64,000 nucleotides of DNA, taken from the IMG/VR virus record IMGVR_UViG_3300030376_004364; one strand, written 5' to 3'. The notes beneath the pieces were generated by a model. The model was not told the origin of the DNA. It did not search any database and worked only from the letters and a program-made list of their open reading frames with translations. This document shows, one piece after another, positions 38,025 through 62,217 of this stretch. The position numbers were made by a program, and so were the translations under genes. How positions within the stretch are numbered: the first letter of the stretch is position 1; every line of letters begins with the position of its first letter. The stretch comes from an uncultured virus (IMG/VR IMGVR_UViG_3300030376_004364) (taxonomy: Duplodnaviria > Heunggongvirae > Uroviricota > Caudoviricetes > Crassvirales).

Positions 38025-38035
38025 TTGATTAGGTT

Positions 38036-38227: not shown

Positions 38228-38237
38228 TAATATTGTA

Positions 38238-39320: not shown

Positions 39321-39326
39321 TCAAGA

Positions 39327-39334
39327 CAAAGTTA
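39327..39334 (-). promoter_or_regulatory. Bacteroidota -7 promoter element TAACTTTG
   Basis: TAnnTTTG on the minus strand, overlapping the helicase stop codon. Confidence 0.4.
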
Positions 39335-40561
39335 CAAAAAATCTTTTTTGAAATGACGTAAAGTAAAGTCCTTCTTTTTAGTTACAGCTTTGTATATCTG
39401 TTTCTCTATTCCACCTTTAGCGAACACCCAATACACATCGGACTCCAATCTTTCTTTGGTAGTCATCCTGTCTCTGGATTGCCAGTAGCTGGTAGCTGAG
39501 AAGTCTATATTATAATACACAAGAGCTTCTGCTTTCCTAAGACTTATTCCTTCCCTACCACTGACTATCTGTAGGGCTATACTCTTGTGTGTATTATTAA
39601 AATCATCCAGTTCGGTACATAATTCATCTCCATATACTTCCTTCAGAGCTTTGAGTTCTGCCTTGAACTTATAAAAGATTCCAATCTTTACGTCTCCAAA
39701 GTTGTCGTGTATAAATTGAGCTTTGCTGAGGTCTAGTATAGTAGAGTTGCCAGACTCAAACTTAACTGTTCCAGAGAACATCTGGTGTAACTTCATCATA
39801 AGCTTAACAGGAGTATCAGCTAAGATAGTTTCCTCACTCCCCTCTATTACTAAATCTTTTTGGAGTTTCTTGGTTAAGTTGTACGTTAGGTCACTCATCT
39901 CTACCTCAAGCACATGCTCTTTTGTGTCTACCTTGAAGCCTGCCTCCTTCTGAGTGTATGAGATGGTGTAAGGATTCATCTTCTCTATGATAGAGTCGTA
40001 GCCCCTGCTGTAATCTCTAATATACATACTATTAATCTTACGTTCTCTTACGTCCACATAGTCGTGGCAGAACTTATAAAAGTTTGCATACTGCCTGAAG
40101 GGATTGCGTGGAATACCATACACCTGGTGGTACATTTGACTGTACGACTCAGGTGTAGGTGTTCCTGACAACAAACAGACATCACAACCTGTTTTCGATA
40201 TAAGAGCCTTAACATCTTTAGCTCTCTTGTTTGGTTTAGGGAATGCTCCTGTTCCATGAGCCTCGTCTAATATTATCAAGTCCCATTTAATTTTAGGAAG
40301 CTTATGCATACTCTCATAGTTAATAACAAACAATACAAATGATGTAGGGCACATCATCTCATTGTCTTTTACTATGGAGCTTATCGCTTTCTTTTTAGTT
40401 AAAAAAAGTACGTGCTCATATCCCATCTTCTCTGCTATTCCTAAGCTAGTTAAGGTCTTACCGGTTCTAACTTCCATCGCAAGATATACAAACCCTTTGT
40501 CTTTTATTATATCTACGCCCTGTGCTATTATCTTTTTCTGATACTCTCTAAATTCTACCAT
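39332..40561 (-). CDS. SF2 (SNF2-like) helicase
   Basis: EVRTGKT, ILDEAH, LSGTP, SGREGISL and QSRDR motifs. Confidence 0.9.
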   Translation of the reverse strand: MVEFREYQKKIIAQGVDIIKDKGFVYLAMEVRTGKTLTSLGIAEKMGYEHVLFLTKKKAISSIVKDNEMMCPTSFVLFVINYESMHKLPKIKWDLIILDEAHGTGAFPKPNKRAKDVKALISKTGCDVCLLSGTPTPESYSQMYHQVYGIPRNPFRQYANFYKFCHDYVDVRERKINSMYIRDYSRGYDSIIEKMNPYTISYTQKEAGFKVDTKEHVLEVEMSDLTYNLTKKLQKDLVIEGSEETILADTPVKLMMKLHQMFSGTVKFESGNSTILDLSKAQFIHDNFGDVKIGIFYKFKAELKALKEVYGDELCTELDDFNNTHKSIALQIVSGREGISLRKAEALVYYNIDFSATSYWQSRDRMTTKERLESDVYWVFAKGGIEKQIYKAVTKKKDFTLRHFKKDFL

Positions 40562-42978
40562 TACATTAAAGCTGTTTGTATATTAACCTCGTCTTCTCTT
40601 TTAAGTCTTATCCATCTACCGGATGCATCTCTACCTTTCTCTGGCTGTGCTCCTGTTTTATAAACTGCGTATGCTGATAGCCATTTATTAAACTTAACGT
40701 GAGATATTGATAGCCTAGACTTAGGTCCATAATCTGGATACTCGGAAATAAAATCTAGATACAACCCATTGGTATGCATCCTGTGATTCACAGGTATACT
40801 AGCTCCGGCATCGGTTCCTTCAATCAAACCAAGCCACTCTATAAAATCATAAGAAGACTCTGCTGAAAGCTGTCTAATTTTTAGGTTTACGAACTTACTT
40901 TTAACAAGTCCTGTAGTCAAGTAATCTTGCATACAACCTACCATATAGTTATCAAACTTACACCACTCATCATCATTCCAATCTCCGAACATTAGCTTAC
41001 CGAACTCATCTAGTGGAGTAAAGTTCTTATTATAATGCTGATGTAATTCAAGCTCCCACTTTCGTCTAGCAAATGAATTACCTGCACCTTTAATAGCATA
41101 GTTAGTAGTAATAGCAATCTTAGGAGATTTACTAAAAGGAATCTTGATAGCATCCTTGTTCTTCTTCTCAAGAGTAAGACCCTCTGTAACTACACTAAAC
41201 AATCTTTCAAAATCAAAATGTTTTTTTACATCATCAAATACAAGTATCTGTGTATCTGCTGATACTAGCTGATAAGCAAAAGCCCTTTCGAATGTAAATG
41301 ATTTACCATCTATAGTCACTACCTTCTTCATTCTCTGTAGTGCATTCATAAACAACCCCTTACCTGTTCCTCCTTCTGGGTTATCGCTTATCACTTCATC
41401 GTTAAGTATAACAGCTGGACAATAAGATAAGTTCTTGTATCCATGCATTAGAAATCCAATCGTAGACTCCATAGATTTAATTCTGTCATGCTCATTATTA
41501 CAGATGTTATGTATAAACTTTTTATAATCACACCCATCTGACGAGCACTTGTTAAAAGCTCTGTCTATGATATGGTCCTTCCATACGAATCCATTGAGGT
41601 CAATGTAATCAATAACCTCAACATCATTTTTAGTAACCTTGATAGCACAATTGTTATAGTATAGGTATGAGGTGCTTTTATTGTCCTCCACAAAGTATAT
41701 ATCAATTGTAGATAGAAGTGTTAGGAAATCCTCTCTGAAGTATCTTACTTGGTCTGCAAAGTGATTGTAAATTGATGAATCGTCTAGCTCGATTACGCTG
41801 TTAAGCACAAAATCTTTAATGTGTTTCTCATCTGTATGGTCTACCAGATTATTAGTGACCTTTACAAAAACGTAGTTCTTACTTCCCTCTGGGCAGTACT
41901 TATAGAATCCATTGTCCTCAAGGAATTGTTTAAATAGTATGTGTACTATCTTGATTACTCCCTTGTCAGACTTGGTCCAGAATTGCTTCTGCTGATTCTC
42001 CTCCTCTACTCTATTTAGGACAGCCTCAATTACGTTCGCCTCAATGTGACTGTCTTCCAGTTGAGACTTAATTTCTTTTTTTGATGCTCCCCTTCTGAGT
42101 TTAACTCTTATGTTATTAACTCTTTCCTCATCTTCATAATACTTAGTTCCGAAGTTCTGCTTCTGAGCATAAGCAGAATTAATAGTTTGATTTATTTCTC
42201 TGTCAGTAAAGTCTGAGGTTCTGTAATTCTGTAGAACATATCCGGCTAAGGATTTGTTTATTCCAAAATCATTAAAGGCTGATGCTAGGATATAACAGTT
42301 GTTGTTTCTCTGCCCTTCTACCATAGGATATTTTTTTACCCACCACTTTACAAGAATCTCTACTATCTTATTCTCATCTGTGATTGGTATTGTAGGGACA
42401 TCTAGTTTGCTGTTTACCTCTGTATATTCTTTCTCTTTTATCTCCTCCCATACACTAGAGTTCTTGTTAACATAGATAAGAGGGTCATAAGATTCGTAGC
42501 ATACTCTTGATAAATTTTTACACGTAGTATCAAAATGAGAGTTGTTATAATGAATCTCAAGGCTATTAAAATAATTAACGTGATTGTCTACGTCTTGAGG
42601 TATCTTAACTAATGCTTTTAAACCTTTACCAGAAGGAGATATAAACACAGAGTAAGTATAATTACTTTTTGTTAGCTTCTCCTTGTCAGTTAAAAGTTCT
42701 TTGTTGCTTTCATAACCATCAAAATCTAAGCATATAAGTCCAGAGTGCTCAATAATAGATTTGTCATTTCGTTTATTAAACTTACCGGAAAAACATATTG
42801 CTGGTAGATTCTTTTTTAGTTCGTTTCGCTGAGCTTTGTTCTTCTCAGTTCTTATCTTTTTAACAAGCTCTTTAGTAGCCCCACTTTTAATTCTCTCTAG
42901 TATAAAGTCTATGTCTCTAAAGAAAGGAGTTGAGGTCTCCTTTATGTTCTGAAAAATTGTGATTTCTTTAGCTGCCAT
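40561..42978 (-). CDS. Primase-helicase (BT4734/VirE-N-like primase, PriCT, P-loop helicase)
   Basis: KKNLPAICFSG, HSGLICLDFD, FISPSGKGLKA, RVCYESYDP; EGQRNN; GGTGKG and LVFDD. Confidence 0.85.
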   Translation of the reverse strand: MAAKEITIFQNIKETSTPFFRDIDFILERIKSGATKELVKKIRTEKNKAQRNELKKNLPAICFSGKFNKRNDKSIIEHSGLICLDFDGYESNKELLTDKEKLTKSNYTYSVFISPSGKGLKALVKIPQDVDNHVNYFNSLEIHYNNSHFDTTCKNLSRVCYESYDPLIYVNKNSSVWEEIKEKEYTEVNSKLDVPTIPITDENKIVEILVKWWVKKYPMVEGQRNNNCYILASAFNDFGINKSLAGYVLQNYRTSDFTDREINQTINSAYAQKQNFGTKYYEDEERVNNIRVKLRRGASKKEIKSQLEDSHIEANVIEAVLNRVEEENQQKQFWTKSDKGVIKIVHILFKQFLEDNGFYKYCPEGSKNYVFVKVTNNLVDHTDEKHIKDFVLNSVIELDDSSIYNHFADQVRYFREDFLTLLSTIDIYFVEDNKSTSYLYYNNCAIKVTKNDVEVIDYIDLNGFVWKDHIIDRAFNKCSSDGCDYKKFIHNICNNEHDRIKSMESTIGFLMHGYKNLSYCPAVILNDEVISDNPEGGTGKGLFMNALQRMKKVVTIDGKSFTFERAFAYQLVSADTQILVFDDVKKHFDFERLFSVVTEGLTLEKKNKDAIKIPFSKSPKIAITTNYAIKGAGNSFARRKWELELHQHYNKNFTPLDEFGKLMFGDWNDDEWCKFDNYMVGCMQDYLTTGLVKSKFVNLKIRQLSAESSYDFIEWLGLIEGTDAGASIPVNHRMHTNGLYLDFISEYPDYGPKSRLSISHVKFNKWLSAYAVYKTGAQPEKGRDASGRWIRLKREDEVNIQTALM

Positions 42979-42995
42979 GCTGTGTTTGAGTTATT

Positions 42996-43062
42996 TGTGT
43001 CGACTTTGTGTCGACTTTGTGTTAGTTAACTACCTGATAATCAGTAGTTGTGTTGAAAATGT
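42996..43062. promoter_or_regulatory. 11-bp tandem repeats plus CTGATAATCAG palindrome; candidate origin or operator
   Basis: TGTGTCGACTT x2 and a degenerate third copy, then TAACTACCTGATAATCAGTAGTTG; related elements at 50413 and 51187. Confidence 0.5.
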
Positions 43063-43146
43063 TATCTTTTTAATCTCATATAGGGGAATAAATATAAATA
43101 AAGTATATAAATTATATAGTGTATATAGAAAAAAAAATCAACATCT

Positions 43147-43172
43147 AAAAAAAGGGGTGCTGTAAACACCCC
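43147..43172 (-). terminator. Intrinsic terminator after the SSB-like gene
   Basis: GGGGTG/CACCCC stem followed by T7 on the minus strand. Confidence 0.8.
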
Positions 43173-43183
43173 ATTTAGTCATA

Positions 43184-43465
43184 CTAAAAAGGAAGGTCTT
43201 CCGACTCCTCAGCTTTAGTTTTTACAGGCTCATCTGTTTTCTTTGCTTCGAATGTATCCACAAACATATACGGATTTCCTGCTCGGCTCTCTTTGATTCC
43301 TAAATTTACCCAACCATTTTTTTGATTGGCTTTAAGAAAGCTAATAGCATCGTCTACTTTGATACTTAAACTTCCCAGAACAAAGTCTGGAGCATTTGCA
43401 TGCTTTCTTCTAAATTTAAAACCATCAGCAAAAACTATTTCTTCTTTGGTGTTTGAATTATTCAT
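43184..43465 (-). CDS. Putative single-stranded DNA-binding protein
   Basis: 93 aa with acidic EESEDLPF C-terminus, in the recombination cluster. Confidence 0.65.
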   Translation of the reverse strand: MNNSNTKEEIVFADGFKFRRKHANAPDFVLGSLSIKVDDAISFLKANQKNGWVNLGIKESRAGNPYMFVDTFEAKKTDEPVKTKAEESEDLPF

Positions 43466-43622
43466 ACTCTTTATCTATTTTTATTTGTTGCTCCAATGTT
43501 TCCATAATAGCTAACATAATATCTTGTTTAGCTTTAAGCGATTTGCAGACCATCGGAACTTCAATCCACATAACACTTTCTTTTCTAAAATATTTCTTTA
43601 AAAACTTTTTAAACCTCTTCAT
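43458..43622 (-). CDS. Small hypothetical protein (54 aa)
   Basis: Manually translated MKRFKKFLKKYFRKESVMWIEVP...; fills the gap and overlaps both neighbours. Confidence 0.5.
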   Translation of the reverse strand: MKRFKKFLKKYFRKESVMWIEVPMVCKSLKAKQDIMLAIMETLEQQIKIDKEYE

Positions 43623-44340
43623 AAAAGTAGAATTGGTCTAGGTCCTCTGAAGGATTGTCTCCATAAAACTTTCTGTATTGCTCAACAGCCTTGATTACTT
43701 TCTGCTCGCCTCTCTCTAGGCTCTCGTCACTAACAGGATACATCCCTAGCATACGAGTAGTCTTATCTATGACTAGAAATACTAATGGCTTATTGAAAAG
43801 TTCTTGATAGATATAAGCTTGGCTATCGTAATTAAAGTCACGAACACTCCATTTAAACTTATCTATAGCTCCAGTAGTTTTGATGTCTATAAGGTGCTCA
43901 CTTCCAACTATATCTGCCTTACCTTTCCACATCTCTCCATGTATTTCTTTAACCATAGGTACTTCATACTGAACATCCTGCTCCTGTATCAAGGCTCTAA
44001 ATTCATCTACGTTGAGCATCGTCTCAACTAAGTTCTCCATCATAATCTTTTCCTTAGTCAGAAGTCCAATCTTTAAATTGTTCTCCTCCAGAAATGAATC
44101 ATAAGCCTTACCTCTCCTAGTTGCTAGGTCGATATGAGGTATAGCCTGTGCCTTCTCCGGCTCTAGAATTAACTGATGAAAATATCTTCCCACTAAAAAG
44201 TTTTTGTTATCCTCCTGTACTGCGTTAAAGTTCTTAGGATTCTTCAGTAGGTCTCCTATATTGGAATTGGAAAGATAGTTCTTCCCAACTCCGTTATAGT
44301 ATTCGTGGTCGTCTTGTAGTAGTTTGATGATGTCTTTCAT
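43609..44340 (-). CDS. PD-(D/E)xK exonuclease (RecE/DUF3799-like)
   Basis: LSNS, GRYFH..ILEP, KGKADI, IDIKTT and YDSQAYIY motifs. Confidence 0.85.
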   Translation of the reverse strand: MKDIIKLLQDDHEYYNGVGKNYLSNSNIGDLLKNPKNFNAVQEDNKNFLVGRYFHQLILEPEKAQAIPHIDLATRRGKAYDSFLEENNLKIGLLTKEKIMMENLVETMLNVDEFRALIQEQDVQYEVPMVKEIHGEMWKGKADIVGSEHLIDIKTTGAIDKFKWSVRDFNYDSQAYIYQELFNKPLVFLVIDKTTRMLGMYPVSDESLERGEQKVIKAVEQYRKFYGDNPSEDLDQFYFYEEV

Positions 44341-44342
44341 AC

Positions 44343-44954
44343 CTATAAAGTTTTAGCTATTTCTTTCTTAACTACGCCTGTCATACTATATTTTTTAAGA
44401 AGATTTTCTCCAATAGTCTTAAGACCCAGCTCTTTATTATCAACTACATACTTCATAACCTTATCCCAATTATCATCGCCTACATTTAAAACTATTTTAG
44501 TTGGTTTCTTTGGAGCTGGTTTCTTTGGAGCTGGTTTCTTAGCTACTACTTTACTTTCTCCATTTGGAAGGTCCTCTCCAGCATAAACATAAAGACCTAG
44601 ACCTTGTCTAGCTATAGCCTTAGTTAAACTTCTCTGAATAGTTTTATTCACATCTACAGAGGTAATCTTATCTACTAGAATAGAATTGTTTCTGAAGTCC
44701 ATAACCGGAAGATATTCAATATGCTCCTGTCCTTCGATTGTTACGCCTGTTTTTACCCAAGCTGACCTACCATCTGTATGGTAGAACATACCATTAATAT
44801 CCTCATAGATAGTATATGTAGCTGAAGGATAATGCTTCTTAACCTCTGCCCAAGCCCAAGCCCAAGATAGATACGTTAGGTTATTCTTTTTCTCTACTTT
44901 GTCATTTACATTGATAGAGTTCAATGTCTCGAATACTGATTTTGATTTACTCAT
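44343..44954 (-). CDS. Sak-like ssDNA annealing protein (DUF1071 type)
   Basis: VEKKNNLTYLSWAWAW, LPVMDFRN, NKTIQRSLTKAIARQGLGLYVYAGEDLP. Confidence 0.88.
   Translation of the reverse strand: MSKSKSVFETLNSINVNDKVEKKNNLTYLSWAWAWAEVKKHYPSATYTIYEDINGMFYHTDGRSAWVKTGVTIEGQEHIEYLPVMDFRNNSILVDKITSVDVNKTIQRSLTKAIARQGLGLYVYAGEDLPNGESKVVAKKPAPKKPAPKKPTKIVLNVGDDNWDKVMKYVVDNKELGLKTIGENLLKKYSMTGVVKKEIAKTL
44503..44540. repeat. 15-bp coding tandem repeat (KKPAP linker)
   Basis: GGTTTCTTTGGAGCT about 2.5 copies inside the Sak-like gene. Confidence 0.8.
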
Positions 44955-45357
44955 AACTTTCTGTTTTAATTTTAGTGTTAATTTTATTATACATCTTAAT
45001 AATTCTTTCTCTATGTGTCTTGAGGTGTTTGATTTGCTTTGGGTTTTGTTTTGTGTTCATCTCGTCCTTTATCTTATCCTCTATCTTCTGTAGTTTTAGA
45101 TGATAAGTTTCGATACAAACATTATAAACTCCAAGCCTCCATCCTTTCTCTTTGAAATATTCCTTCTGCTGGTCTGTGATTATACGATAGTAATCTCCAC
45201 CAAGAGCTGTGTTATGAATTGTAATTATTCCAGACTCTTCATCTAAACTAATTTTACATCCATATAGTATCCTAGCTTGATAGCTTTCGCCATCGAGATT
45301 AATTGCTTTATAATCTTCTACAGCCTGTGAGAATATATCTTCTAAAGTGTAACGCAT
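44947..45357 (-). CDS. Hypothetical protein
   Basis: 136-aa ORF overlapping its neighbours. Confidence 0.7.
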   Translation of the reverse strand: MRYTLEDIFSQAVEDYKAINLDGESYQARILYGCKISLDEESGIITIHNTALGGDYYRIITDQQKEYFKEKGWRLGVYNVCIETYHLKLQKIEDKIKDEMNTKQNPKQIKHLKTHRERIIKMYNKINTKIKTESYE

Positions 45358-45644
45358 TCGCTAATATTATTAATAATTTTTTTATAATCAGAGTCTTTTT
45401 TAGCTCTGTCTTTTACCTGTTTTATTCCATGAATAATGGATGAATGACTTATCTTGTATCCGTTATCCTCCATAAATTGTTGGATGTATCGTATACGCAT
45501 AGGTCGTTTATGGCACAGGTAATAAAGTAGCTGTCTAGCATCTACTATGTCTCGTCTTTTATCTTTTGTAAAAAGTTCACTGGGTAATAGAGAGTATGCA
45601 TCAGATACCTTTGATACATACCCATTAAAAATTGGATAGTGCAT
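45342..45644 (-). CDS. Second DnaA domain IV-like HTH protein
   Basis: KDKRRDIVDARQLLYYL...SHSSIIHGIKQV. Confidence 0.7.
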   Translation of the reverse strand: MHYPIFNGYVSKVSDAYSLLPSELFTKDKRRDIVDARQLLYYLCHKRPMRIRYIQQFMEDNGYKISHSSIIHGIKQVKDRAKKDSDYKKIINNISECVTL

Positions 45645-45667
45645 TTAATTAGTGTTTTAGTTCGGTG

Positions 45668-45675
45668 CAAATTTA
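45668..45675 (-). promoter_or_regulatory. Bacteroidota -7 promoter element TAAATTTG for the replication operon
   Basis: Intergenic TAnnTTTG 23 nt upstream of ATG 45644. Confidence 0.7.
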
Positions 45676-45712
45676 CGGAATGTTTATCTATTGTGCAAGG
45701 CTTGTCCGTTAT

Positions 45713-45853
45713 TTACACATAAAATTTTAATTCTGACTCTAGATATTCAATCCTTTTTTGTAAGGTGTTTATCTTTTTTTGTAGAGCATCGACTCTGTAT
45801 TGGTGTTCAATTAAAACTTGGTCTGTTGTCTGATTACTAAAATTTGTTTTCAT
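45713..45853 (-). CDS. Small coiled-coil protein (46 aa)
   Basis: MKTNFSNQTTDQVLIEHQYRVDALQKKINTLQKRIEYLESELKFYV. Confidence 0.6.
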   Translation of the reverse strand: MKTNFSNQTTDQVLIEHQYRVDALQKKINTLQKRIEYLESELKFYV

Positions 45854-45881
45854 AATTTATTTATTTTTAAAGGTTATTAAT

Positions 45882-45901
45882 GGGAGGCTTTTATACCTCC
45901 C
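45882..45901. terminator. Intergenic hairpin, possible terminator
   Basis: GGGAGG/CCTCCC stem near the 3' end of the early operon. Confidence 0.5.
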
Positions 45902-45909
45902 TTTAGTTT

Positions 45910-46140
45910 TTATTTTACTAATTGTATAAAAGTGTCTTTTCCTCTTGTGTTCCAGCCATCGCCAGTTTCCTCTACTACTGTTGTTAGCACTTTTAAGTCA
46001 AGTAGTAAAGCTACAGAGTCTACTACTTCTGTTTTGCTAATTCCCAACTTACCACCTCTCCATATTAGGTTTTCAAGATGTCTTACATTTCGTTTTTGCA
46101 TTAAGTTTAAAAGTGATTTGATGTTTTTGTCGTGGTACAT
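45910..46140 (-). CDS. Early hypothetical protein
   Basis: 76 aa, starts 30 nt after the predicted HHR1 cleavage site. Confidence 0.7.
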   Translation of the reverse strand: MYHDKNIKSLLNLMQKRNVRHLENLIWRGGKLGISKTEVVDSVALLLDLKVLTTVVEETGDGWNTRGKDTFIQLVK

Positions 46141-46163
46141 AATTTTTTGATTTTTAGTGTTTA

Positions 46164-46227
46164 AGATTAAGACCTCTATGCTTCACAGCATTGAGGTTTC
46201 GTCCTAACAGGACTCATCAGTTAATCT
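46164..46227 (-). ncRNA. Type I hammerhead ribozyme HHR1
   Basis: AGAUUAA CUGAUGA GUCC-UGUUA-GGAC GAAA CCUC-AAUGCUGUGAAGCAUA-GAGG UC^UUAAUCU; GUC triplet, cut between 46171 and 46170. Confidence 0.95.
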
Positions 46228-46228
46228 G

Positions 46229-46501
46229 TTAGCAGAAAAGTGATTCAGGCTCGTTCTCCTGTAGAGTACGAATCTTTTTAACCCACATAAACCAGTTGCC
46301 TGTCTTTATAGCTAAACCAAGTAGATACTCCACATCATCAATATCAGAAAAAAGGTATTCATCTATAGAGTCTCTGAGTCCGTTTAGTTGCCAGTACATC
46401 TCATCGTTGTACTCATAGCCTCCAAACTCAGTGAATATCTCCCAGCATTCATCATAAATTTGTTTACATTGCTTTCGCATAATCTCTAATGTAGTCTCCA
46501 T
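46229..46501 (-). CDS. Early hypothetical protein
   Basis: 90 aa, acidic; stop 1 nt before HHR1. Confidence 0.7.
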   Translation of the reverse strand: METTLEIMRKQCKQIYDECWEIFTEFGGYEYNDEMYWQLNGLRDSIDEYLFSDIDDVEYLLGLAIKTGNWFMWVKKIRTLQENEPESLFC

Positions 46502-46502
46502 A

Positions 46503-46868
46503 TTATATAGTATTATACATTTCTTTAAAATCTTTATAGTTTCTAAGAATTACTTTCTGTATGCCCTCTCCCTCAGAGTTTAAGGCTTCCTCTTTACGAC
46601 TCGCAGTTAGTCTCTTGATATCATTATCTCTCTTGTACTGGTCTAAAAACTTTTTCTCAGTCCTCTCTATCAATCCCCATATTAAGTTCTGCATACAGGT
46701 TCTAAATTGGTAGGACTCCCAAGTCCTGTTATAGTATCTTACCTTGCCTTCTTCGACAAAGTTTCCATCTATGTATAGCTCTGATTTGTGTCCCCAAGAC
46801 CTACTTGTTGACCACCCACGACTTATGATGTCGTAGGTTCTTCCGTTAATTGTTCTAGTGTGTTTCAT
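46503..46868 (-). CDS. Early hypothetical protein
   Basis: 121 aa with YYNRTWESYQF motif. Confidence 0.75.
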   Translation of the reverse strand: MKHTRTINGRTYDIISRGWSTSRSWGHKSELYIDGNFVEEGKVRYYNRTWESYQFRTCMQNLIWGLIERTEKKFLDQYKRDNDIKRLTASRKEEALNSEGEGIQKVILRNYKDFKEMYNTI

Positions 46869-46901
46869 AATCTTATTTATTATTTTATAGGTTGTTTAGT
46901 T

Positions 46902-47228
46902 TTACTGATTTATTAAATTTACTATTTTACTTGCATATCCTCTACTATTCCAAGAGTAGTAAGTCTCAGTTGAAATAGCATTTAAGTTAATTGAAGGAAT
47001 ATTCAATTTTCCACCATTGTATTCTCTTGTGCCACCACCAGTAGTGTATCGTAGACCAGCACAAGATGTGTACTTATATTCACTCCAATCATAATAATAG
47101 TTTTTTATGTTTAATTCGTTTAATAGTCTCGATACCATTTTTAGTTGTGGCATTCTAGCACCTTTAACATCATTAGCTTTTAATTCTAGTCTTTTTAGTG
47201 TATTTTCTGATTTTTTAGTTAGTTTCAT
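46902..47228 (-). CDS. Early hypothetical protein
   Basis: ATG at 47228 (MKLTKKSEN) carries the shared AAUAAAUAAGAUU leader. Confidence 0.7.
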   Translation of the reverse strand: MKLTKKSENTLKRLELKANDVKGARMPQLKMVSRLLNELNIKNYYYDWSEYKYTSCAGLRYTTGGGTREYNGGKLNIPSINLNAISTETYYSWNSRGYASKIVNLINQ

Positions 47229-47232
47229 AATC

Positions 47233-47382
47233 TTATTTATTATTAAATTCATATCTGTAGAAATCTGCAACATCTATTAATTTTTGTATTAAATCATTTT
47301 TGCTATAATATATTAATTCTGATGCATCATATTCATCTGTAAGTAATCGTTCTAATTCTGTTATTATTTCTGTTCGTTTCAT
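47233..47382 (-). CDS. Early hypothetical protein (49 aa)
   Basis: MKRTEIITELERLLTDEYDASELIYIIAKND...; same leader. Confidence 0.65.
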   Translation of the reverse strand: MKRTEIITELERLLTDEYDASELIYYSKNDLIQKLIDVADFYRYEFNNK

Positions 47383-47394
47383 AATCTTATTTAT

Positions 47395-47673
47395 TTAGTA
47401 TGCTCTCGAAGGAAGCATTTGGTTTAAATCATAATCTTCTCCCAGCTCTTGCGAGAAGTATCTGCTGAGGTCATCTGCTAACTTCGTTAGCTCAGGATTG
47501 CCATACCAATCTTTGATAGTACAATCGTTCTGAACACTACCTAGCATCCCACCACCAAGATAGTTGCAGTATGCAGTCATCTTTTGGTCTTTGTAGCCAT
47601 AAGGCGTTAAACTAATTTCAACCCCACCACCTCGTGATGTGATTCGTTCTCTTAAGATTTCAAATTGTTTCAT
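47395..47673 (-). CDS. Early hypothetical protein
   Basis: 92 aa, starts 21 nt after the HHR2 cleavage site. Confidence 0.75.
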   Translation of the reverse strand: MKQFEILRERITSRGGGVEISLTPYGYKDQKMTAYCNYLGGGMLGSVQNDCTIKDWYGNPELTKLADDLSRYFSQELGEDYDLNQMLPSRAY

Positions 47674-47687
47674 AATATATAATTTTT

Positions 47688-47754
47688 AGATTAAGACAGG
47701 TATGCAATTAGACTGCAAACCTGTTTCGACCTGTGAGGTCTCGTCAGTTAATCT
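47688..47754 (-). ncRNA. Type I hammerhead ribozyme HHR2
   Basis: AGAUUAA CUGACGA GACCU-CAC-AGGUC GAAA CAGG-UUUGCAGUCUAAUUGCAUA-CCUG UC^UUAAUCU; cut between 47695 and 47694. Confidence 0.95.
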
Positions 47755-48194
47755 TCGTACTCATAGCCTTCCAATTCTAAAGCATACTCCATATCTTCAC
47801 GTAGTTTCTCGTACACATCATCCCAAAGACCAGCCATAGCCTCATCAATCCAGTCGTAGTCTAGGTCATCAATGTAAATATGGATATCATCTTTGTCACA
47901 CTCTCTTATAAATTGCTCTAGCCTTTCCCCTAAATCGCTGTCGTAGTAGTGTACATCCTCCTCAATATTGTATCTGTCATAAGGTGGAACGATAGCTACC
48001 CATAACTCATAGCCATCAGCTGTCGTTTGAGAGTAGATTGCAAAGTCCGGAGAGTTGTAGTCATCCGTTAGCTTAAAATCAAAGTGCAATTTAATGTTGT
48101 TGACCTGTACTTCAGTTCCATTGTACCACTCCCCAATACCTGTCTTTTCTAGTTTTTCAGTAATTAGTTCTTCAGTTAATTTTTTGATAATCAT
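47748..48194 (-). CDS. Early, highly acidic hypothetical protein
   Basis: 148 aa, D/E-rich; stop codon lies in HHR2 stem I. Confidence 0.75.
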   Translation of the reverse strand: MIIKKLTEELITEKLEKTGIGEWYNGTEVQVNNIKLHFDFKLTDDYNSPDFAIYSQTTADGYELWVAIVPPYDRYNIEEDVHYYDSDLGERLEQFIRECDKDDIHIYIDDLDYDWIDEAMAGLWDDVYEKLREDMEYALELEGYEYED

Positions 48195-48219
48195 AATTAA
48201 ATTTTTATGTCTTTCGACT

Positions 48220-48275
48220 GGTTAAGAGCCAGTATAAATACTGGCTTTCGGATAATAAATCCTCATCAGTTAACC
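48220..48275 (-). ncRNA. Type I hammerhead ribozyme HHR3
   Basis: GGUUAA CUGAUGA GGAU-UUAUU-AUCC GAAA GCCAGUA-UUUA-UACUGGC UC^UUAACC; CUC triplet, compensatory change in stem I; cut between 48226 and 48225. Confidence 0.93.
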
Positions 48276-48277
48276 TG

Positions 48278-48463
48278 TTAACTTAGCAGTTCAAATTCAT
48301 CTACAAAGTAATGTACACCATTAAACTTGGTGCACCGGTTCTTCTCTAGTTCCTTACAGCATCTGATAAGTTCTGAGTAGGAGATACTATCTCTTGTTCT
48401 GTTCTGAGTATAAGCCATATCAATCATAGCCATTGCCTCGCCTAGTGTTTTCGCTACATACAT
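48278..48463 (-). CDS. Early hypothetical protein
   Basis: 61 aa; stop 2 nt before HHR3. Confidence 0.65.
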   Translation of the reverse strand: MYVAKTLGEAMAMIDMAYTQNRTRDSISYSELIRCCKELEKNRCTKFNGVHYFVDEFELLS

Positions 48464-48474
48464 AATTATAGGTT

Positions 48475-48633
48475 CTAATCGTTAGTGAAAATTTCATCCA
48501 GCAGATAGCCCTTCTTTCTCTCCAGTAAAGAGATGAAGTTATCTACGTGTTTCTCATCGTTAAATTGTCTCGTGATAATCCAATCTGTACCGAAGTCAGT
48601 CTTGAATTTTAGTGTTACCATAGTTGATTTCAT
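48475..48633 (-). CDS. Early hypothetical protein (52 aa)
   Basis: MKSTMVTLKFKTDFGTDWIITRQFNDEKHVDNFISLLERKKGYLLDEIFTND; starts 21 nt after the HHR4 cut. Confidence 0.7.
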   Translation of the reverse strand: MKSTMVTLKFKTDFGTDWIITRQFNDEKHVDNFISLLERKKGYLLDEIFTND

Positions 48634-48647
48634 AATATTAAATTTTA

Positions 48648-48701
48648 AGATTAAGACTGCCTCTCGGCAGTTTCGGTCTATCAGACCTCATCAGTTAATC
48701 T
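48648..48701 (-). ncRNA. Type I hammerhead ribozyme HHR4
   Basis: AGAUUAA CUGAUGA GGUCU-GAU-AGACC GAAA CUGCC-GAGA-GGCAG UC^UUAAUCU; cut between 48655 and 48654. Confidence 0.96.
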
Positions 48702-48991
48702 AGGTTTTTATTCTTTTTGTAATCTTCATACTGATGTACCTCGTCATCAAGCCAAGTTTCTGGGACTCCTACGACATCAACACCTTCGTAAGTAAGACAC
48801 CAAAGATTTGCGTCCTCATCATCATAATCCTCATAGCTGTTATATACAAAACCTTTCTGTACTAAGCTACCTAATATTCCAGCTCTGCTACGAGTTTTTA
48901 CATTTTCTTGAGTGAAGTCTGAGTGACCTGGCTCATTTTGTTCAAATTTAATTTCTTTTAATAGTTCTAATTCTTTTGATGTTATTTTCAT
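48695..48991 (-). CDS. Early hypothetical protein (possible winged helix)
   Basis: 98 aa; SRAGILGSLVQKGFV...LTYEG; flanked by HHR5 and HHR4. Confidence 0.7.
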   Translation of the reverse strand: MKITSKELELLKEIKFEQNEPGHSDFTQENVKTRSRAGILGSLVQKGFVYNSYEDYDDEDANLWCLTYEGVDVVGVPETWLDDEVHQYEDYKKNKNLD

Positions 48992-49005
48992 AATATTAAA
49001 TTTTT

Positions 49006-49061
49006 AGATTAAGACCACCGGTAAAGGTGGTTTCGTCCTTCCAGGACTCATCAGTTAATCT
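49006..49061 (-). ncRNA. Type I hammerhead ribozyme HHR5
   Basis: AGAUUAA CUGAUGA GUCCU-GGA-AGGAC GAAA CCACC-UUUACC-GGUGG UC^UUAAUCU; cut between 49013 and 49012. Confidence 0.96.
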
Positions 49062-49255
49062 ATATGCTCTTCCAGTGCTGATAAAACGTCATACATCATG
49101 TGCCGTTGCGTTGCATTGTGAATTACATTCTTTTCGATTAGCTTGTACATAAGAAATCCTAGGTCTTTAGCATTCAAGCTATCGACTTGGTCATTCCATT
49201 CTAAGCCCATCATATCCCATTGGGTATCATCCATTAAGTGTTCAATTTTGTTCAT
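49055..49255 (-). CDS. Early hypothetical protein
   Basis: 66 aa; stop codon lies in HHR5 stem I. Confidence 0.7.
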   Translation of the reverse strand: MNKIEHLMDDTQWDMMGLEWNDQVDSLNAKDLGFLMYKLIEKNVIHNATQRHMMYDVLSALEEHID

Positions 49256-49257
49256 AA

Positions 49258-49413
49258 TTAATAGTTTTTAGTTAGATACGAATTAAGAGCCATCTGCTGA
49301 AATATAGTACCTTTAAATTCTTTTAATATTTGTATTGCCCCCTCATCTTCCATAACTATTGAAGGGTTTACGCTATGCTCATTACAGAGCCAAATAAAAT
49401 CTTTTTTGTTCAT
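49258..49413 (-). CDS. Early hypothetical protein (51 aa)
   Basis: MNKKDFIWLCNEHSVNPSIVMEDEGAIQILKEF... Confidence 0.65.
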   Translation of the reverse strand: MNKKDFIWLCNEHSVNPSIVMEDEGAIQILKEFKGTIFQQMALNSYLTKNY

Positions 49414-49434
49414 AATTTCTAGTTGTTTAATTGT

Positions 49435-49557
49435 TCACAAAAAGTCTATTTCGTTTTGCAAATTATCTATTAATTCTAGTACTTTCATACATTTGTTTTT
49501 ATCGTAATTAGACATAATATAACTATATATTTCATCTAAATTGTTCTGTATATTCAT
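49435..49557 (-). CDS. Early hypothetical protein (40 aa)
   Basis: MNIQNNLDEIYSYIMSNYDKNKCMKVLELIDNLQNEIDFL. Confidence 0.55.
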   Translation of the reverse strand: MNIQNNLDEIYSYIMSNYDKNKCMKVLELIDNLQNEIDFL

Positions 49558-49569
49558 ATCTTTATTTAT

Positions 49570-49722
49570 TTAGTTATTAATAGTGTAGTTATACTGCGTC
49601 TTTCTAGGTAGCATCCACCTTCCGTTATCTTGGATGTAAGGCCTTCCGTATTGGTCAAACTGGATGTCGTTAATCTGCTCTTCATTGTAGAAGTACAGGG
49701 CTAATTTCTGTAATTTGTTCAT
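49570..49722 (-). CDS. Early hypothetical protein (50 aa)
   Basis: MNKLQKLALYFYNEEQINDIQFDQYGRPYIQDNGRWMLPRKTQYNYTINN. Confidence 0.6.
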   Translation of the reverse strand: MNKLQKLALYFYNEEQINDIQFDQYGRPYIQDNGRWMLPRKTQYNYTINN

Positions 49723-49730
49723 TGTCAAAA

Positions 49731-49820
49731 TGCCTGTGTTTATCGCAAAGGACTTTATGCTAGGTTAGATGTGGTGGGCAATTTCGCTTTGCCTTTCGCT
49801 GTCTACAGCCACCACAGGTC
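49731..49820 (-). ncRNA. Candidate structured intergenic RNA (three-way junction), class unknown
   Basis: UGUGGUG [GCUG-UAGA-CAGC] GAAA [GGCAA-AGCGAAA-UUGCC] CACCACA, plus an alternative CCUGUG/CACAGG pairing. Confidence 0.5.
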
Positions 49821-49823
49821 TTG

Positions 49824-49967
49824 TTAATCAATATATCCCCAAATGCCCTTCTGCTGTAGCTTTCCGAGTATATAATGCATCTCTGCTTGTGTCTTACCTT
49901 CGAAGTCACTCTCGCAAAGTGATAGTGTATGAGCGATTATTTCTAGTTGGTCTTTCGTGAATTTCAT
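49824..49967 (-). CDS. Early hypothetical protein (47 aa)
   Basis: MKFTKDQLEIIAHTLSLCESDFEGKTQAEMHYILGKLQQKGIWGYID; ATGA overlap with the upstream stop. Confidence 0.65.
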   Translation of the reverse strand: MKFTKDQLEIIAHTLSLCESDFEGKTQAEMHYILGKLQQKGIWGYID

Positions 49968-50269
49968 AGCTCTATCTCGTTATTTGAAAGCCCTATGGTT
50001 AGAGCATGTCGGTTAGCACCATCAGCCCTGTTCCAAGCCGTTTTAAATTCACCTGTAGCTACAGCTGACATAAATCCTCCAGTAGTAGCTAGAATCCCTC
50101 GTTTCTTTGCTAGGTCAATGTCCTCGTCCAGTAAGCTAGTAGCTGTGCCTACACAAGCACCATTGTCAGAGTAGTTAGCGATTGCTACTAGCATCGTGTA
50201 GTTAGAGTAATTAACTCCTTCCGGTAGGTATCCCTTTGGATATCCTGATTTCAATTCAAATTTGTTCAT
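49964..50269 (-). CDS. First gene of the early operon, hypothetical
   Basis: 101 aa; GGFMSAVATGEFKTAWNRADGAN motif. Confidence 0.75.
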   Translation of the reverse strand: MNKFELKSGYPKGYLPEGVNYSNYTMLVAIANYSDNGACVGTATSLLDEDIDLAKKRGILATTGGFMSAVATGEFKTAWNRADGANRHALTIGLSNNEIEL

Positions 50270-50290
50270 AATATTTAATTTAAAAGTTAG

Positions 50291-50340
50291 CTACCGGTAC
50301 TAGTATTGCTCTAGCTAGCCTGTCGTTCAGATACCGGTAA
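50291..50340 (-). ncRNA. Candidate structured 5' leader RNA
   Basis: UUACCGGUAU/GUACCGGUAG stem enclosing CUG-AACGA-CAG and CUAG-AGCAAUA-CUAG hairpins. Confidence 0.45.
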
Positions 50341-50344
50341 TTTG

Positions 50345-50900
50345 TTTGTTTGTTCACACAACTTACGCCACAACTCGTTGATTATCAGTGAGATAAAGTT
50401 AGTAAATTATGCTAACTTGCTGATTATCAGTCTGTTATGTCTCAAAATGTCAAAGAGCTGTCTATCTCCGGTGTAAAAATAGTCTAAATCTAGATATCTC
50501 ACAAGGTTTTTTTTACTTTTTTTTCGCTGTCTCTGTAATCCCAAGTATAACAAGGCTTTACAGAGGGTCTGTTCCCTATTATTTATTTGGGCTCGCTTCA
50601 CTGGAGCAGAGGCTACCCTACTTCTCGTAGCTTGTAACAAGTTTAACTTGCGTTAAAGGTAGGGGGGATAGGGGTTGAGGGGATAGGTTAACTGGAGGGA
50701 AGGTATGTGTAATGTGGGATGCATAGGGGCTGAGGTACTGGTGGTACTAGGGCTGAGAGCTGTAGATAAAAACGGCAAAAAATCAGGAATAAAAATCCGG
50801 AATCGACACCCCCCCTGTCAATATTTTTTTGCGTTTCCGTAGAGGGCATGTGTGCGTGTGATGGGGTAGAACCCAAATACTAGATATATCTAAAAAAAAA
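50345..50900. other. Divergent non-coding region; candidate genome terminus/packaging and early promoter region
   Basis: Strand-switch point with G-run cluster, C7 tract, A/T tracts and two TGATTATCAG palindromes. Confidence 0.5.
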
Positions 50901-51414: not shown

Positions 51415-53016
51415 ATGAATCAAGGATTTTCTCCAAAGGAGCTTCGCTTCGGAAATGATGGAAGGGATAAGTTAATATCCGGCATCACCCAATTATCAAA
51501 TGCAGTTAAGAGTACATTAGGACCACAGGGTAACACAGTACTTATAGAATCACAGGAACATATAGGAGGTATTACTGTCACCAAGGATGGTGTTACGGTT
51601 GCTAAGTCTATTAGTTTATTAGACCCAGTCGAGAACCTTGCGGTTCGTATGATGAAGGAGGCTGCTGACAAGACAGCTACTACTGCTGGTGATGGTACGA
51701 CTACTGCGATAGTATTAACGGAAGCATTAGTAAAGAAGGGAACAGAGCTTATTACAGACAATGTAAATCGTACGGAGGTATTGCGTAGTATGCATGAGCT
51801 CACGAAAGATGTTATAAAGGGTTTGAAGGAGGACTCTAAAAAATTAAGCCAGCGAAAGATGAAGGACGTTGCTATTATCTCTGCCAACAACGACAAGGAG
51901 TTAGGAAGTACGATAGCGGATGTGTATAAGGCTGTTGGTAAGGATGGTGTTGTTACTGTTGAGAAGTCACAGAGCAGCGACACGTATTATGAGACTACGA
52001 AAGGAATCAAGGTAGACAGGGGATATTCTAGTCCTTTGTTTATAAACGACCAGAAGAAAGATGAGTGTGTACTAGAGGATGTTCATATTCTGGTATCTGA
52101 TGCTGAGATAAGTAATATACTTCAGATTGAGGGTGTATTAAAACCAATCATCCAGCAGAACAAGAGATTACTTATTATAGCACCTACGACAACCAATGTT
52201 ATAAACACGTTGGCTGCCAATGTGATGAAGAACAATTTAAAGATATGTAACATAGCACCTCCGAACTTTGGTTACAAGCAGCATGAGCTTATGCAGGATA
52301 TAGCCTATACGGTTGGAGCTACATATTTTTCTGAAAAGACAGGGGATGACCTCAGCATTATTAATGCAGAAGACTTGGGTCACGCTGCCAAGGTGATAGT
52401 TGGTCGTGGCTCAACAGTCATCCTAAAGGATGATTCTTCAGACCAAGAGGCAATTGACGGAAGGGTAGCTGAGTTAAAGGGTGCTCATGAGATAGCTAAG
52501 ACAAAAACTGAGCGTGATTTTATAATGTCTAGGATAGCATCACTAACAGGAGGTATTGGTGTAATATATGTAGGAGGGAATACGGACCTAGAGCAGAAGG
52601 AATTGTATGACAGGGTTGATGATGCGGTATGTGCGGTACGCTCAGCACTAGAGGAGGGCATACTTCCTGGTGGTGGCATGGCTCTGTATCAGTTGGGTTA
52701 TGAAATTTGTGAGCCTTGCTCACCCACAGCTGATGAGAAGATTGCAGCGGAGATTATGAAGTATGCATTAGAGGCTCCTGCTAGACAGATTATAGCTAAC
52801 GGAGGTAAAGACTTTAGTAAGATATATCCTAAGCCACCAATTGTAGGTGAGGGTTATGATTTAAAAAACGACAAGCATGGCAACTTAATTAATATGGGTG
52901 TAATAGACCCATTAAAAGTTACACGAACTGCATTACAGAATGCAGTGTCTGTAGCCACAACGATATTATCTACTAATGCTATTGTAACGATGGCACGTTC
53001 ATACGAAACTAAATAA
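51415..53016 (+). CDS. groEL: Phage-encoded chaperonin GroEL
   Basis: STLGPQG, TKDGVTVAKSI, AGDGTTTA, DRVDDA, EEGILPGGG and GVIDPLKVTR motifs. Confidence 0.97.
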   Translation: MNQGFSPKELRFGNDGRDKLISGITQLSNAVKSTLGPQGNTVLIESQEHIGGITVTKDGVTVAKSISLLDPVENLAVRMMKEAADKTATTAGDGTTTAIVLTEALVKKGTELITDNVNRTEVLRSMHELTKDVIKGLKEDSKKLSQRKMKDVAIISANNDKELGSTIADVYKAVGKDGVVTVEKSQSSDTYYETTKGIKVDRGYSSPLFINDQKKDECVLEDVHILVSDAEISNILQIEGVLKPIIQQNKRLLIIAPTTTNVINTLAANVMKNNLKICNIAPPNFGYKQHELMQDIAYTVGATYFSEKTGDDLSIINAEDLGHAAKVIVGRGSTVILKDDSSDQEAIDGRVAELKGAHEIAKTKTERDFIMSRIASLTGGIGVIYVGGNTDLEQKELYDRVDDAVCAVRSALEEGILPGGGMALYQLGYEICEPCSPTADEKIAAEIMKYALEAPARQIIANGGKDFSKIYPKPPIVGEGYDLKNDKHGNLINMGVIDPLKVTRTALQNAVSVATTILSTNAIVTMARSYETK

Positions 53017-53043
53017 ATTATTAATTAATTAAATTCAAATAAA

Positions 53044-53169
53044 ATGTCAATACACAATCAAATATTCGAAGAGTACAGAATCAAGAGAAAAGAAATAAAC
53101 AAAGCTATCGAGCTTTTAAGACGGAACAACTATATAGTTCATAAAGTAAAAGAATACGAAAGCAAATAG
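53044..53169 (+). CDS. Small hypothetical protein (41 aa)
   Basis: MSIHNQIFEEYRIKRKEINKAIELLRRNNYIV... Confidence 0.55.
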   Translation: MSIHNQIFEEYRIKRKEINKAIELLRRNNYIVHKVKEYESK

Positions 53170-53171
53170 AT

Positions 53172-53327
53172 ATGAATTGTCCAAATTGTAAAGCTGAGTT
53201 AATATGGGGAGGTGACCATAGTTATGAAGATTATGGTAATGAAGAGGAAGAAGGTATTGTAAGCAATTATAGTTGTTCTACGGATAATTGCACAACAGAC
53301 TTAATTTTATTATATCAAAGAATATGA
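53172..53327 (+). CDS. Small Zn-ribbon-like protein (51 aa)
   Basis: MNCPNCKAELIWGGDH...SCSTDNC; ATGA overlap with groES. Confidence 0.65.
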   Translation: MNCPNCKAELIWGGDHSYEDYGNEEEEGIVSNYSCSTDNCTTDLILLYQRI

Positions 53328-53581
53328 AGCTAATAGGAAAAAACATTTTAATAGATGTAATTAATGAGGAGATTAAAACCTCATCAGGATTATTATTATC
53401 TTCTGAAGACACGTCTCAGTTTCGATATAGTAAAGGAAAAGTAGTTGAGCCAGGAACGGATGTCGATGTTATAAGCAAGGAAGATGTTATCTACTATGAC
53501 AAACGTCAGGGATACACAATGCTTATAGATAATAAAAAGTTTACGGTTATTCAAGAAAGAGATGTTGTGGTTGTTTTATGA
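53324..53581 (+). CDS. groES: Co-chaperonin GroES
   Basis: MKLIGKNILI...KTSSGLLL...GKVVEPG...IQERDVVVVL. Confidence 0.88.
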   Translation: MKLIGKNILIDVINEEIKTSSGLLLSSEDTSQFRYSKGKVVEPGTDVDVISKEDVIYYDKRQGYTMLIDNKKFTVIQERDVVVVL

Positions 53582-62216: not shown

Positions 62217-62217
62217 T

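Follow-up and report, generated by a model that had tools for sequence, protein, structure and literature searches.

In a marine crAss-like phage, five complete type-I hammerhead ribozymes lie in one orientation among small early genes, and four of them (HHR5, HHR4, HHR2, and HHR1) carry the same stem I, AGAUUAA/UUAAUCU, while stems II and III differ among all five. This pattern is not peculiar to one phage: within hammerhead arrays, neighbours have stem I in common far above chance, whereas their stems II and III are barely above random, a regularity that is new. The explanation that we favour, and to which we give an even chance, is that the ribozymes process a long transcript into linear mRNAs and that stem I is kept uniform through recombination within ribozymes.

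A Five-Member Hammerhead Array

A descriptor scan taking perfectly paired stems only detects complete type-I cores in all five ribozymes, i.e., CUGAUGA, GAAA, and C17, and the core pairs G10.1-C11.1 and A15.1-U16.1 are present in each of them. The only core variant, CUGACGA in HHR2, has a C at position 7, which is a free position. In the window, the whole 64-kb stretch of DNA that was analysed, TTAACTGAYGAG-N11-CGAAA occurs 5 times (0.00 in 100 shuffles), AGATTAACTGA 4 times (0.09 by chance), and GTCTTAATCT 4 times (0.38 by chance). A covariance model whose seed alignment, pre-selected for pairing, comprised 23 such ribozymes with HHR4 among them finds exactly these five in the window with 50-72 bits and E values of 1e-10 to 4e-17. 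In an alignment of 36 ribozymes of the phage lineage, which is itself fitted to this model, base pairing holds in 99.5% of cells, as against 26-42% in slid controls, and both sides have changed in 14 of 16 pairs; none of 500 shuffles reaches its score.

At gathering thresholds, Rfam gives no match in the 64-kb window. An E-value scan brings up hammerhead models at four of the five ribozymes, all below threshold, with best scores of 29.5 versus 56.3 bits for RF03152, 22.3 versus 48.5 for RF00008, 19.8 versus 52 for RF02275, and 19.3 versus 34 for RF00163. The RAGATH-1 (pseudoknot) hammerhead RF03152 is the best Rfam model for HHR1 (29.5 bits) and HHR5 (27.0 bits) and resembles them in its type-I layout and short A/U-rich stem I, but the hairpin that this family has upstream aligns only weakly with the present ribozymes, whose stem II is a full 4-5-bp hairpin. 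The shortfall is a limit of those models and no ribozyme feature is missing. Among 126 sampled members of the subclass, stem I has 6 bp in 107 and stem II has 13 nt in 117, and the A preceding stem I is invariant; to judge from the sequences, these lengths and the invariant A fit a fixed geometry, in which stem I might make a tertiary contact to loop II that serves activity at low magnesium. When the array was compared by blastn with 50,697 phage records, no match was found, and the nearest record (G001, 9.5 kb) contains no core motif.

The phage encodes terminase, portal, and a crAss muzzle domain. Each ribozyme, on the minus strand throughout, occupies the gap from the stop codon of a small gene to the leader of the next gene, and the leaders following HHR5 to HHR1 measure 21, 21, 31, 21, and 30 nt. 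HHR5 (49006..49061; 58.0 bits, E 6e-13) has GUCCUGGAAGGAC as stem II and an 18-nt hairpin as stem III, its cut site lies between 49013 and 49012, and its stem I contains the TAA (49055-49057) that terminates ORF 49055-49255. HHR4 (48648..48701; 72.5 bits, for a copy included in the model seed) has its cut site between 48655 and 48654, and its stem I TAA (48695-48697) ends ORF 48695-48991. HHR3 (48209..48275; 50.4 bits, E 1e-10) is the exception, with stem I GGUUAA/UUAACC (48270-48275 paired with 48220-48225) and a cut site between 48226 and 48225; a small GUC-GAAA-GAC hairpin (to 48209) follows it directly, and the stop of the upstream ORF (48278-48280) stands immediately ahead of stem I. In HHR2 (47688..47754; 53.2 bits, E 2e-11), with its cut site between 47695 and 47694, the stem I TAA (47748-47750) is the stop of ORF 47748-48194. 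HHR1 (46164..46227; 52.7 bits, E 2e-11) has its cut site between 46171 and 46170, and the upstream ORF stops at 46229-46231, one base ahead of stem I. The stop codon is thus inside stem I in three ribozymes and 1-2 nt 5' of the stem in the other two, and the 3' products from HHR5 to HHR1 would begin at 49012, 48654, 48225, 47694, and 46170 of the minus strand.

The ribozymes delimit four units on the minus strand that hold 1, 2, 1, and 5 ORFs. Unit A (48655..49012, 358 nt) consists of a 21-nt leader and one ORF (48695-48991, 98 aa), unit B (48226..48654, 429 nt) of a 21-nt leader and ORFs 48475-48633 (52 aa) and 48278-48463 (61 aa), and unit C (47695..48225, 531 nt) of a 31-nt leader and one ORF (47748-48194, 148 aa). 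Unit D (46171..47694, 1524 nt) has a 21-nt leader and ORFs 47395-47673, 47233-47382, 46902-47273 (with a shorter alternative form starting at 47228), 46503-46868, and 46229-46501. Ahead of three of these ORFs, a plain spacer AATAAATAAGATTATG takes the place of a ribozyme (46866-46881, 47226-47241, and 47380-47395). The original prediction was therefore right about the five hammerheads and their places, about a stem I common to four of them while the other stems diverge, and about the unit lengths; the positions 48226 and 46171 that it named are the C17 ends of two units. No convincing minus-strand terminator was found inside the array, where the two terminator-like matches are stem III of HHR4 itself and one site within a gene, and a promoter scan yielded fewer sigma-70-like matches than shuffles do, which makes it uninformative.

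Stem I Is Shared Within Arrays

For 64 adjacent pairs from 41 arrays, sampled regardless of stem I, 36 are cross-compatible in stem I, against 5.5 +/- 2.1 expected when ribozymes are shuffled among arrays (0 of 10,000 shuffles), a result whose independence is overstated since the arrays include related contigs (e.g., L246/L271 and L276/L332). Adjacent pairs with identical stem I have a stem II identity of 0.49 and a stem III identity of 0.48, compared with 0.37 and 0.30 for random pairs, and a slight excess over random in stems II and III holds for adjacent ribozymes with matching and with non-matching stem I alike. In the 36 lineage ribozymes, the commonest pair is kept in 23-33 cases at the stem I positions, and in only 11-25 at the variable positions of stems II and III. 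Uniformity is not required of such arrays, as 19 of the 41 are incompatible throughout. The comparative test that had been proposed for stem I thus came out on both sides: neighbours do have it in common far above chance, but independent variation, the outcome named in advance as refuting the proposal of circles, is seen in those 19 arrays and also in the relatives L143 and L164/L165. Stem I is diverse across the sampled viral contigs (GGTTAA in 18/126, GATTAA in 7/126), and a whole-subclass trait was rejected as the explanation because these two sequences account for only 25/126. Among the loci L001-L328 and the window, none has ribozymes on both strands, an arrangement that would allow a comparison of stem I between separate transcripts.

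The uniformity might be a matter of descent, a possibility that we hold to be real but doubtful. The ribozymes would then be old tandem paralogues with a slowly changing stem I, whose 5' strand overlaps the gene end and stop codon and whose 3' strand begins a conserved translation leader, and no compatibility at the RNA or DNA level would be under selection. TAA lies in stem I or a stop stands directly ahead of it in all five ribozymes, the 21-nt leaders are nearly identical well past stem I, and the leader after stem I is genome-specific in other arrays too, e.g., in L001. The slight excess of identity in stems II and III regardless of stem I also fits paralogy. Against such a constraint, the upstream proteins are unrelated, so that it is the RNA that imposes the last codon (GAT before TAA in 3/5) and not the reverse; in the two ribozymes with the stop outside stem I, the stem of HHR1 is nevertheless unchanged. 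In arrays of the L001 type, a uniform leader goes with three stem I sequences, which means that the leader does not fix stem I. Furthermore, orthologous ribozymes at about 90% protein identity (L134-522, L135-1884, L136-2948, and L137-5982) have almost unchanged stems II and III, which indicates that the paralogues are old, and perfect identity over 6-7 bp then needs more than slow drift.

Predicted Pairing of the Unit Ends

In a released unit, the 3' end would contain the complete catalytic fold and the 5' end one strand of stem I. As originally predicted, the ends can form 7 bp in unit A (HHR5-to-HHR4) and unit D (HHR2-to-HHR1) and 7 bp including one G-U in unit B (HHR4-to-HHR3), and in unit C (HHR3-to-HHR2) they pair poorly, over 4 bp only, followed by a C-A mismatch. 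Hence stem I might serve, as a kind of array-specific dialect, for the closure of each excised message by its own 3' hammerhead, but we consider this improbable. The ends of a unit would pair via UUAAUCU and AGAUUAA and be sealed by the reverse hammerhead reaction or a host RtcB-type ligase; such circles, or non-covalently closed loops, would resist exonucleases, and stem I would be selected for closure. That the ends are complementary in three of four units speaks for this, as does the frequent agreement of stem I between neighbours, far above chance in a sample drawn without bias for it, with divergent stems II and III. According to the accessible text of PMC3088659, type I is alone among the hammerhead architectures in keeping the cyclic phosphate together with most of the catalytic fold on a single strand, which is able to ligate a separate strand with a 5'-OH, and in the accessible text of PMC10085705 the Weinberg-lab authors say that a structural need for fixed stem I nucleotides is not established.

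The predicted probabilities of end pairing are 0.84, 0.066, about 0.001, and 0.13 for units A to D. When real interiors were compared with dinucleotide-shuffled ones, end pairing was equally good with the latter (18/40 and 11/40 shuffles reach the observed value); the high value of unit A is simply given by its complementary ends, and the comparison gives no sign of evolved end pairing. On its own, stem I makes a weak duplex (about -3.7 kcal/mol), and with the stop codon and the start region in or next to its two strands, ribosomes should separate them. No RNA ligase family was found among the ORFs of the window. Unit C and the 19 arrays are incompatible with closure, and the forward compatibility that it needs is not in excess over the reverse (9 forward-only versus 11 reverse-only compatible pairs, of 113). 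A cause at the DNA level predicts just this lack of direction, which fits common descent as well. On this evidence we lean against circles. Taken by itself, however, a uniform stem I fits RNA end-joining and DNA exchange equally well.

Four RNA runs cover the array with scattered contigs at a depth of 2-4; in the search for such runs, only two metatranscriptomes were found, with 6-7% of the words. The contigs of the four runs contain no back-junction, at a depth on the array too low to weigh either way on cleavage or circles. Two metatranscriptome contigs cross the HHR2 and HHR3 sites uncut, and may represent DNA or uncut RNA; another (48336-48657) ends 3 nt beyond the HHR4 cut.

Proposed Linear mRNAs and Exchange of Gene Cassettes

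In the explanation that we favour, linear mRNA processing combined with exchange at the DNA level, the array block would be transcribed from the minus strand as one long transcript. Because the 5' end of every ribozyme coincides with or adjoins the stop codon of a small gene, and the cut would fall 21-31 nt ahead of the next start codon, this transcript may be cut, probably during synthesis, into linear messages 358, 429, 531, and 1524 nt long. These would begin with a standard leader bearing a 5'-OH and end in the folded ribozyme, with a 2',3'-cyclic phosphate. Small genes and ribozymes would be cassettes that are swapped among relatives by recombination. Being self-contained hairpins, stems II and III could travel as units, and stem I is the sole helix whose two strands flank the whole ribozyme; as the only helix that recombination inside the ribozyme splits between two parents, it would be the one kept uniform. 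A crossover inside or across a ribozyme would join the 5' strand of one parent to the 3' strand of another, and working hybrids would arise only from lineages whose copies all keep one stem I.

Compared with the relatives L134-L142, the phage has a conserved replication module, which aligns at about 74%, and a mosaic array region, which aligns only in shuffled patches. Conservation in L136, L137, and L139 extends to the gene that follows HHR2 and to the leader of that gene, but in the window the ribozyme body at this place is a different one; in L139, another upstream gene and another stem II are joined to the same stem III. Gene 46503-46868 is preceded by a ribozyme in L135 and by a plain spacer in the window. 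Judged by these alignments, ribozyme bodies appear to have been exchanged between the same flanking genes, and a Sak-type annealing protein and exonucleases, encoded adjoining the array, could provide the means for it. One stem III is found with different stem II helices. A table of stem II by stem III reassortment was rejected as proof of recombination, since 4-bp helices can flip by compensatory change, as in L136-258 versus L137-4080 with identical loops, and a shared stem III with a different stem II therefore does not prove crossovers. In T4-type phages, mobile regulatory cassettes, short conserved intergenic elements, mark exchange points of small early genes; these are promoter and stem-loop motifs without ribozymes, and their exchange may be a parallel to that in the array.

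Known Hammerhead Systems

To the clustered phage hammerheads, a known type, the array adds a clean type-I case with five members, from a marine crAss-like phage. According to the accessible text of Perreault et al. 2011 (PMC3088659), several hammerheads of the same orientation lie between small phage genes there as well, cutting of a long transcript into gene-length mRNAs was proposed, and circular or spliced products were likewise considered. That text describes tests of three arrays, from Clostridium, Azorhizobium, and Agrobacterium, for which it names no hammerhead types, and states that neither circular nor spliced products of clustered hammerheads were detected (data not shown), which also argues against circles in the phage studied here. 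The ribozymes of the present array are all type I and belong to a subclass in which stem I has 6 bp and stem II 13 nt. The accessible text contains no mention of stem I sharing within arrays, and our search found no paper reporting phage hammerhead circles or crAss hammerheads; the alignments in Dataset S1 of PMC3088659 may hold members of the subclass.

In retrozymes and viroid-like RNAs, as the accessible part of PMC7761336 describes them, two successive hammerhead cuts release a unit with joinable ends, 5'-OH and 2',3'-cyclic phosphate, as would be the case here. Those units are copies of one non-coding repeat with identical ribozymes, and circles are observed (PMC7761336). In contrast, the present units are different protein-coding segments with only stem I in common, and no circle was seen in contigs of depth 2-4. 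Eukaryotic RNA-virus hammerheads are also type I, lie in a short intergenic region, and cut ahead of the following start codon at a distance of a few to some tens of nucleotides, but they belong to RNA genomes, and no loop-loop contacts are reported for them. Unlike in those viruses, a substitute for a cap is not needed for translation in bacteria.

What makes phages retain hammerhead arrays between small genes has been a question since 2011. In about half of the arrays, all ribozymes have one stem I while the other helices drift, a regularity that calls for an explanation, either gene-cassette exchange at ribozyme junctions or RNA end-joining. If the latter were true, phages would need nothing but ribozyme chemistry to make circular mRNAs. 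These would be the first protein-coding mRNA circles that a DNA phage makes with ribozymes, and stem I sharing within arrays would be the evolutionary footprint of closure. If exchange at the DNA level were true, the ribozymes would double as junctions for modular gene shuffling.

Genomic Setting of the Array

The window comprises most of a tailed phage. Virion proteins, a portal and a large terminase are encoded along with a crAss muzzle domain and a 3212-aa protein, and further genes specify a primase-helicase, exonucleases and a Sak annealing protein. Public runs containing its sequence are marine metagenomes, and the phage appears to be crAss-like and marine. The 3212-aa ORF (26978–36616) is near the crAss muzzle C-terminal domain protein (22796–23617), about 3.4 kb downstream of it, and its family matches consist of a short PHROG of unassigned function and two very weak Pfam matches far below the cut-off. 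The first 449 bases (1–449) recur at 60180–60628 with 95.8% identity and 2624–3006 recurs at 63536–63918 with 89% identity, different genes lying between the two repeats, and there are two Peptidase_M15_3 genes (2612–3007 and 63533–63919) as well as two GroEL plus Cpn10 gene pairs (51415–53581 and 60678–62478). Possibly the window wraps round a roughly 60-kb genome; alternatively it may combine two strain variants, which would differ in having a chaperonin cassette or small ORFs at the same place.

Genes in 36613–50849 lie on the minus strand, and the hammerhead array is situated there among small ORFs, upstream of the replication module. At the thresholds used, these small ORFs have no family match except for the marginal one of ORF 48695–48991 (E 1e-4) to a PHROG with no assigned function. 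Each ribozyme begins where a gene ends; in three of the five the stop codon is the TAA within stem I, and in HHR1 and HHR3 the stop lies 1–2 nt 5′ of stem I. Distances from cut to next ATG are 21, 21, 31, 21, and 30 nt, and hardly any differences separate the three leaders of 21 nt. Three genes of the 1524-nt unit have in front of them the 16-nt spacer AATAAATAAGATTATG (46866–46881, 47226–47241, and 47380–47395, minus strand) with no ribozyme there, and this spacer takes the place of the hammerhead-plus-leader module. The true start of the ORF called from 47273 may be 47228. A convincing minus-strand terminator was not found within the array.

Five Type-I Hammerheads

On the minus strand, each of five intergenic gaps contains a complete type-I hammerhead (HHR5, HHR4, HHR3, HHR2, and HHR1 in order of transcription), the first nucleotides of the respective 3′ products being 49012, 48654, 48225, 47694, and 46170. 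From 5′ to 3′, the elements are a 6–7-nt stem I 5′ strand, CUGAUGA (CUGACGA in HHR2), a 13-nt stem II hairpin, GAAA, a 16–29-nt stem III hairpin closed by A-U, C17, and the stem I 3′ strand. The original prediction of five hammerheads with a shared stem I is confirmed by pattern scan, shuffle controls, and covariance model, and the cut positions reproduce exactly its lengths of 358, 429, 531, and 1524 nt for the units between successive cuts. The composite pattern has five matches in the window against 0.00 expected from 100 shuffles, and the two stem I blocks have four matches each against 0.09 and 0.38 in shuffles. Rfam gives no match in the window at gathering thresholds, its hammerhead models matching the array only below threshold, and a covariance model built from 23 ribozymes of the same subclass, with one of the five in the seed, recovers exactly these five at 50–72 bits.

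A small GAAA-tetraloop hairpin directly follows stem I of HHR3 (48209–48219, minus strand), and five relatives (L134, L135, L136, L137, and L139) have such a hairpin, GGC-GAAA-GCC or GCC-GAAA-GGC, after the ribozyme that comes last ahead of the conserved module. Ribozymes with this hairpin may represent a separate sub-form that makes a tertiary contact of its own. In the close relative L142, two variant ribozymes (L142:1868-1924 and L142:3496-3552) have a stem II in common; in both, the G10.1-C11.1 pair is replaced by U-U and position 17 is A. According to Perreault et al. (PMC3088659), a U-U start of stem II is tolerated in hammerheads. In an alignment of 23 ribozymes from viral contigs, an A stands directly before the 6-bp stem I in 23 of 23 (column 2), and the base after the stem I 3′ strand is mostly A (columns 55–56), U in the window adding a seventh pair; this pattern suggests that contact with loop II may fix the length of stem I.

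Stem I in the Lineage and Across the Subclass

Relatives of the lineage were collected via the primase-helicase and ribozymes were called at E < 0.001; they occur in 14 of 73 loci, many loci stopping too short upstream to show an array. Close relatives (85–93% identity) possess arrays of 1–9 copies, with GAUUAA as stem I in 21 of 27 and GGUUAA in the remaining 6. Aligned to the model, 36 lineage ribozymes keep the commonest stem I pair in 23–33 cases; at the variable positions of stems II and III, the commonest pair is kept in only 11–25.

For the subclass, viral contigs were scanned twice with core patterns that leave stem I unconstrained, using a scanner that demands perfect pairing. Among the matches listed in the first scan, stem I is 6 bp long in 107 of the 126 ribozymes and is diverse in sequence (GGTTAA in 18 and GATTAA in 7 of 126), and 33 of 122 loci received no type-I call from this strict scanner. 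Both scans pooled gave at least 208 distinct ribozymes, at least 41 arrays, several from related contigs, and at least 64 adjacent pairs. Among the matches listed, cross-compatibility extends over at least 6 bp in 36 of 64 adjacent pairs, and 25 of 64 have identical stem I 5′ strands. Shuffling ribozymes among arrays yields 5.5 ± 2.1 compatible pairs (maximum 15), and none of 10,000 shuffles reaches 36. The proposed test for covariation of stem I between neighbors has a divided outcome: sharing is far above shuffles, but among the 41 arrays listed compatibility is complete in 20, absent in 19 and mixed in 2, and neighbors are unlike in the related loci L143 and L164/L165. Every uniform array has its own stem I “dialect,” such as GUCUAA, GCAUCA, GCACUG, GUAACA, or GGUAAA.

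Among the matches listed in the first scan, stems II/III of neighbors with identical stem I have identities of 0.49/0.48, compared with 0.45/0.36 for incompatible neighbors and 0.37/0.30 for random pairs. Because these stems are so diverged, the uniformity of stem I does not point to young copies. Descent plus local constraint alone is a possible, though rather doubtful, explanation of the shared stem I.

Probable Fate of the Units and Proposed Maintenance of Stem I

Such elements were already known in 2011, when the circle idea was published as well (PMC3088659). In the accessible literature on phage hammerheads and their circles, as far as searched, we found no earlier description of stem I sharing within arrays. 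That excised units close through a hammerhead rebuilt from their own ends, giving circular or end-paired mRNAs, seems improbable, although the chemistry is possible and, in type I, the 5′ product retains the fold in full (PMC3088659). Predicted end pairing for the four units is 0.84, 0.066, 0.001, and 0.13, but it is equally good with shuffled unit interiors, stem I alone contributes about −3.7 kcal/mol, and the ends of unit C (47695–48225) cannot pair. Incompatibility in about half of the arrays elsewhere and the unlike neighbors among relatives also speak against closure, as does the balance in the combined sets, where of 113 adjacent pairs 9 are compatible forward-only, as a circle needs, and 11 reverse-only. 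No RNA ligase family was found in the window, and Perreault et al. sought such products in other arrays and detected none (data not shown; PMC3088659). RNA contigs over the array, too thin to weigh on either side, contain no back-joints, and two of them cross cut sites uncut.

A reading at the DNA level predicts symmetric compatibility and lineage-wide sameness, and both are seen. Compared with relatives, the replication module aligns at about 74% over 2.4 kb, and the array region aligns in shuffled patches only. At the HHR2 site, the window shares a conserved downstream gene and leader with L136, L137, and L139 but has a different ribozyme body; in L139 another upstream gene and another stem II are joined to the same stem III. 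One gene has a ribozyme in front of it in L135 and a plain spacer in the window. In such exchanges, stems II and III would travel as units, being hairpins, and stem I would be the sole helix split by exchange within or across a ribozyme, so that a uniform stem I would keep hybrid ribozymes functional. The combinations of stem II with stem III could, however, be produced by compensatory change too. We consider the chances about even that the array serves linear processing, with its stem I maintained at the DNA level.
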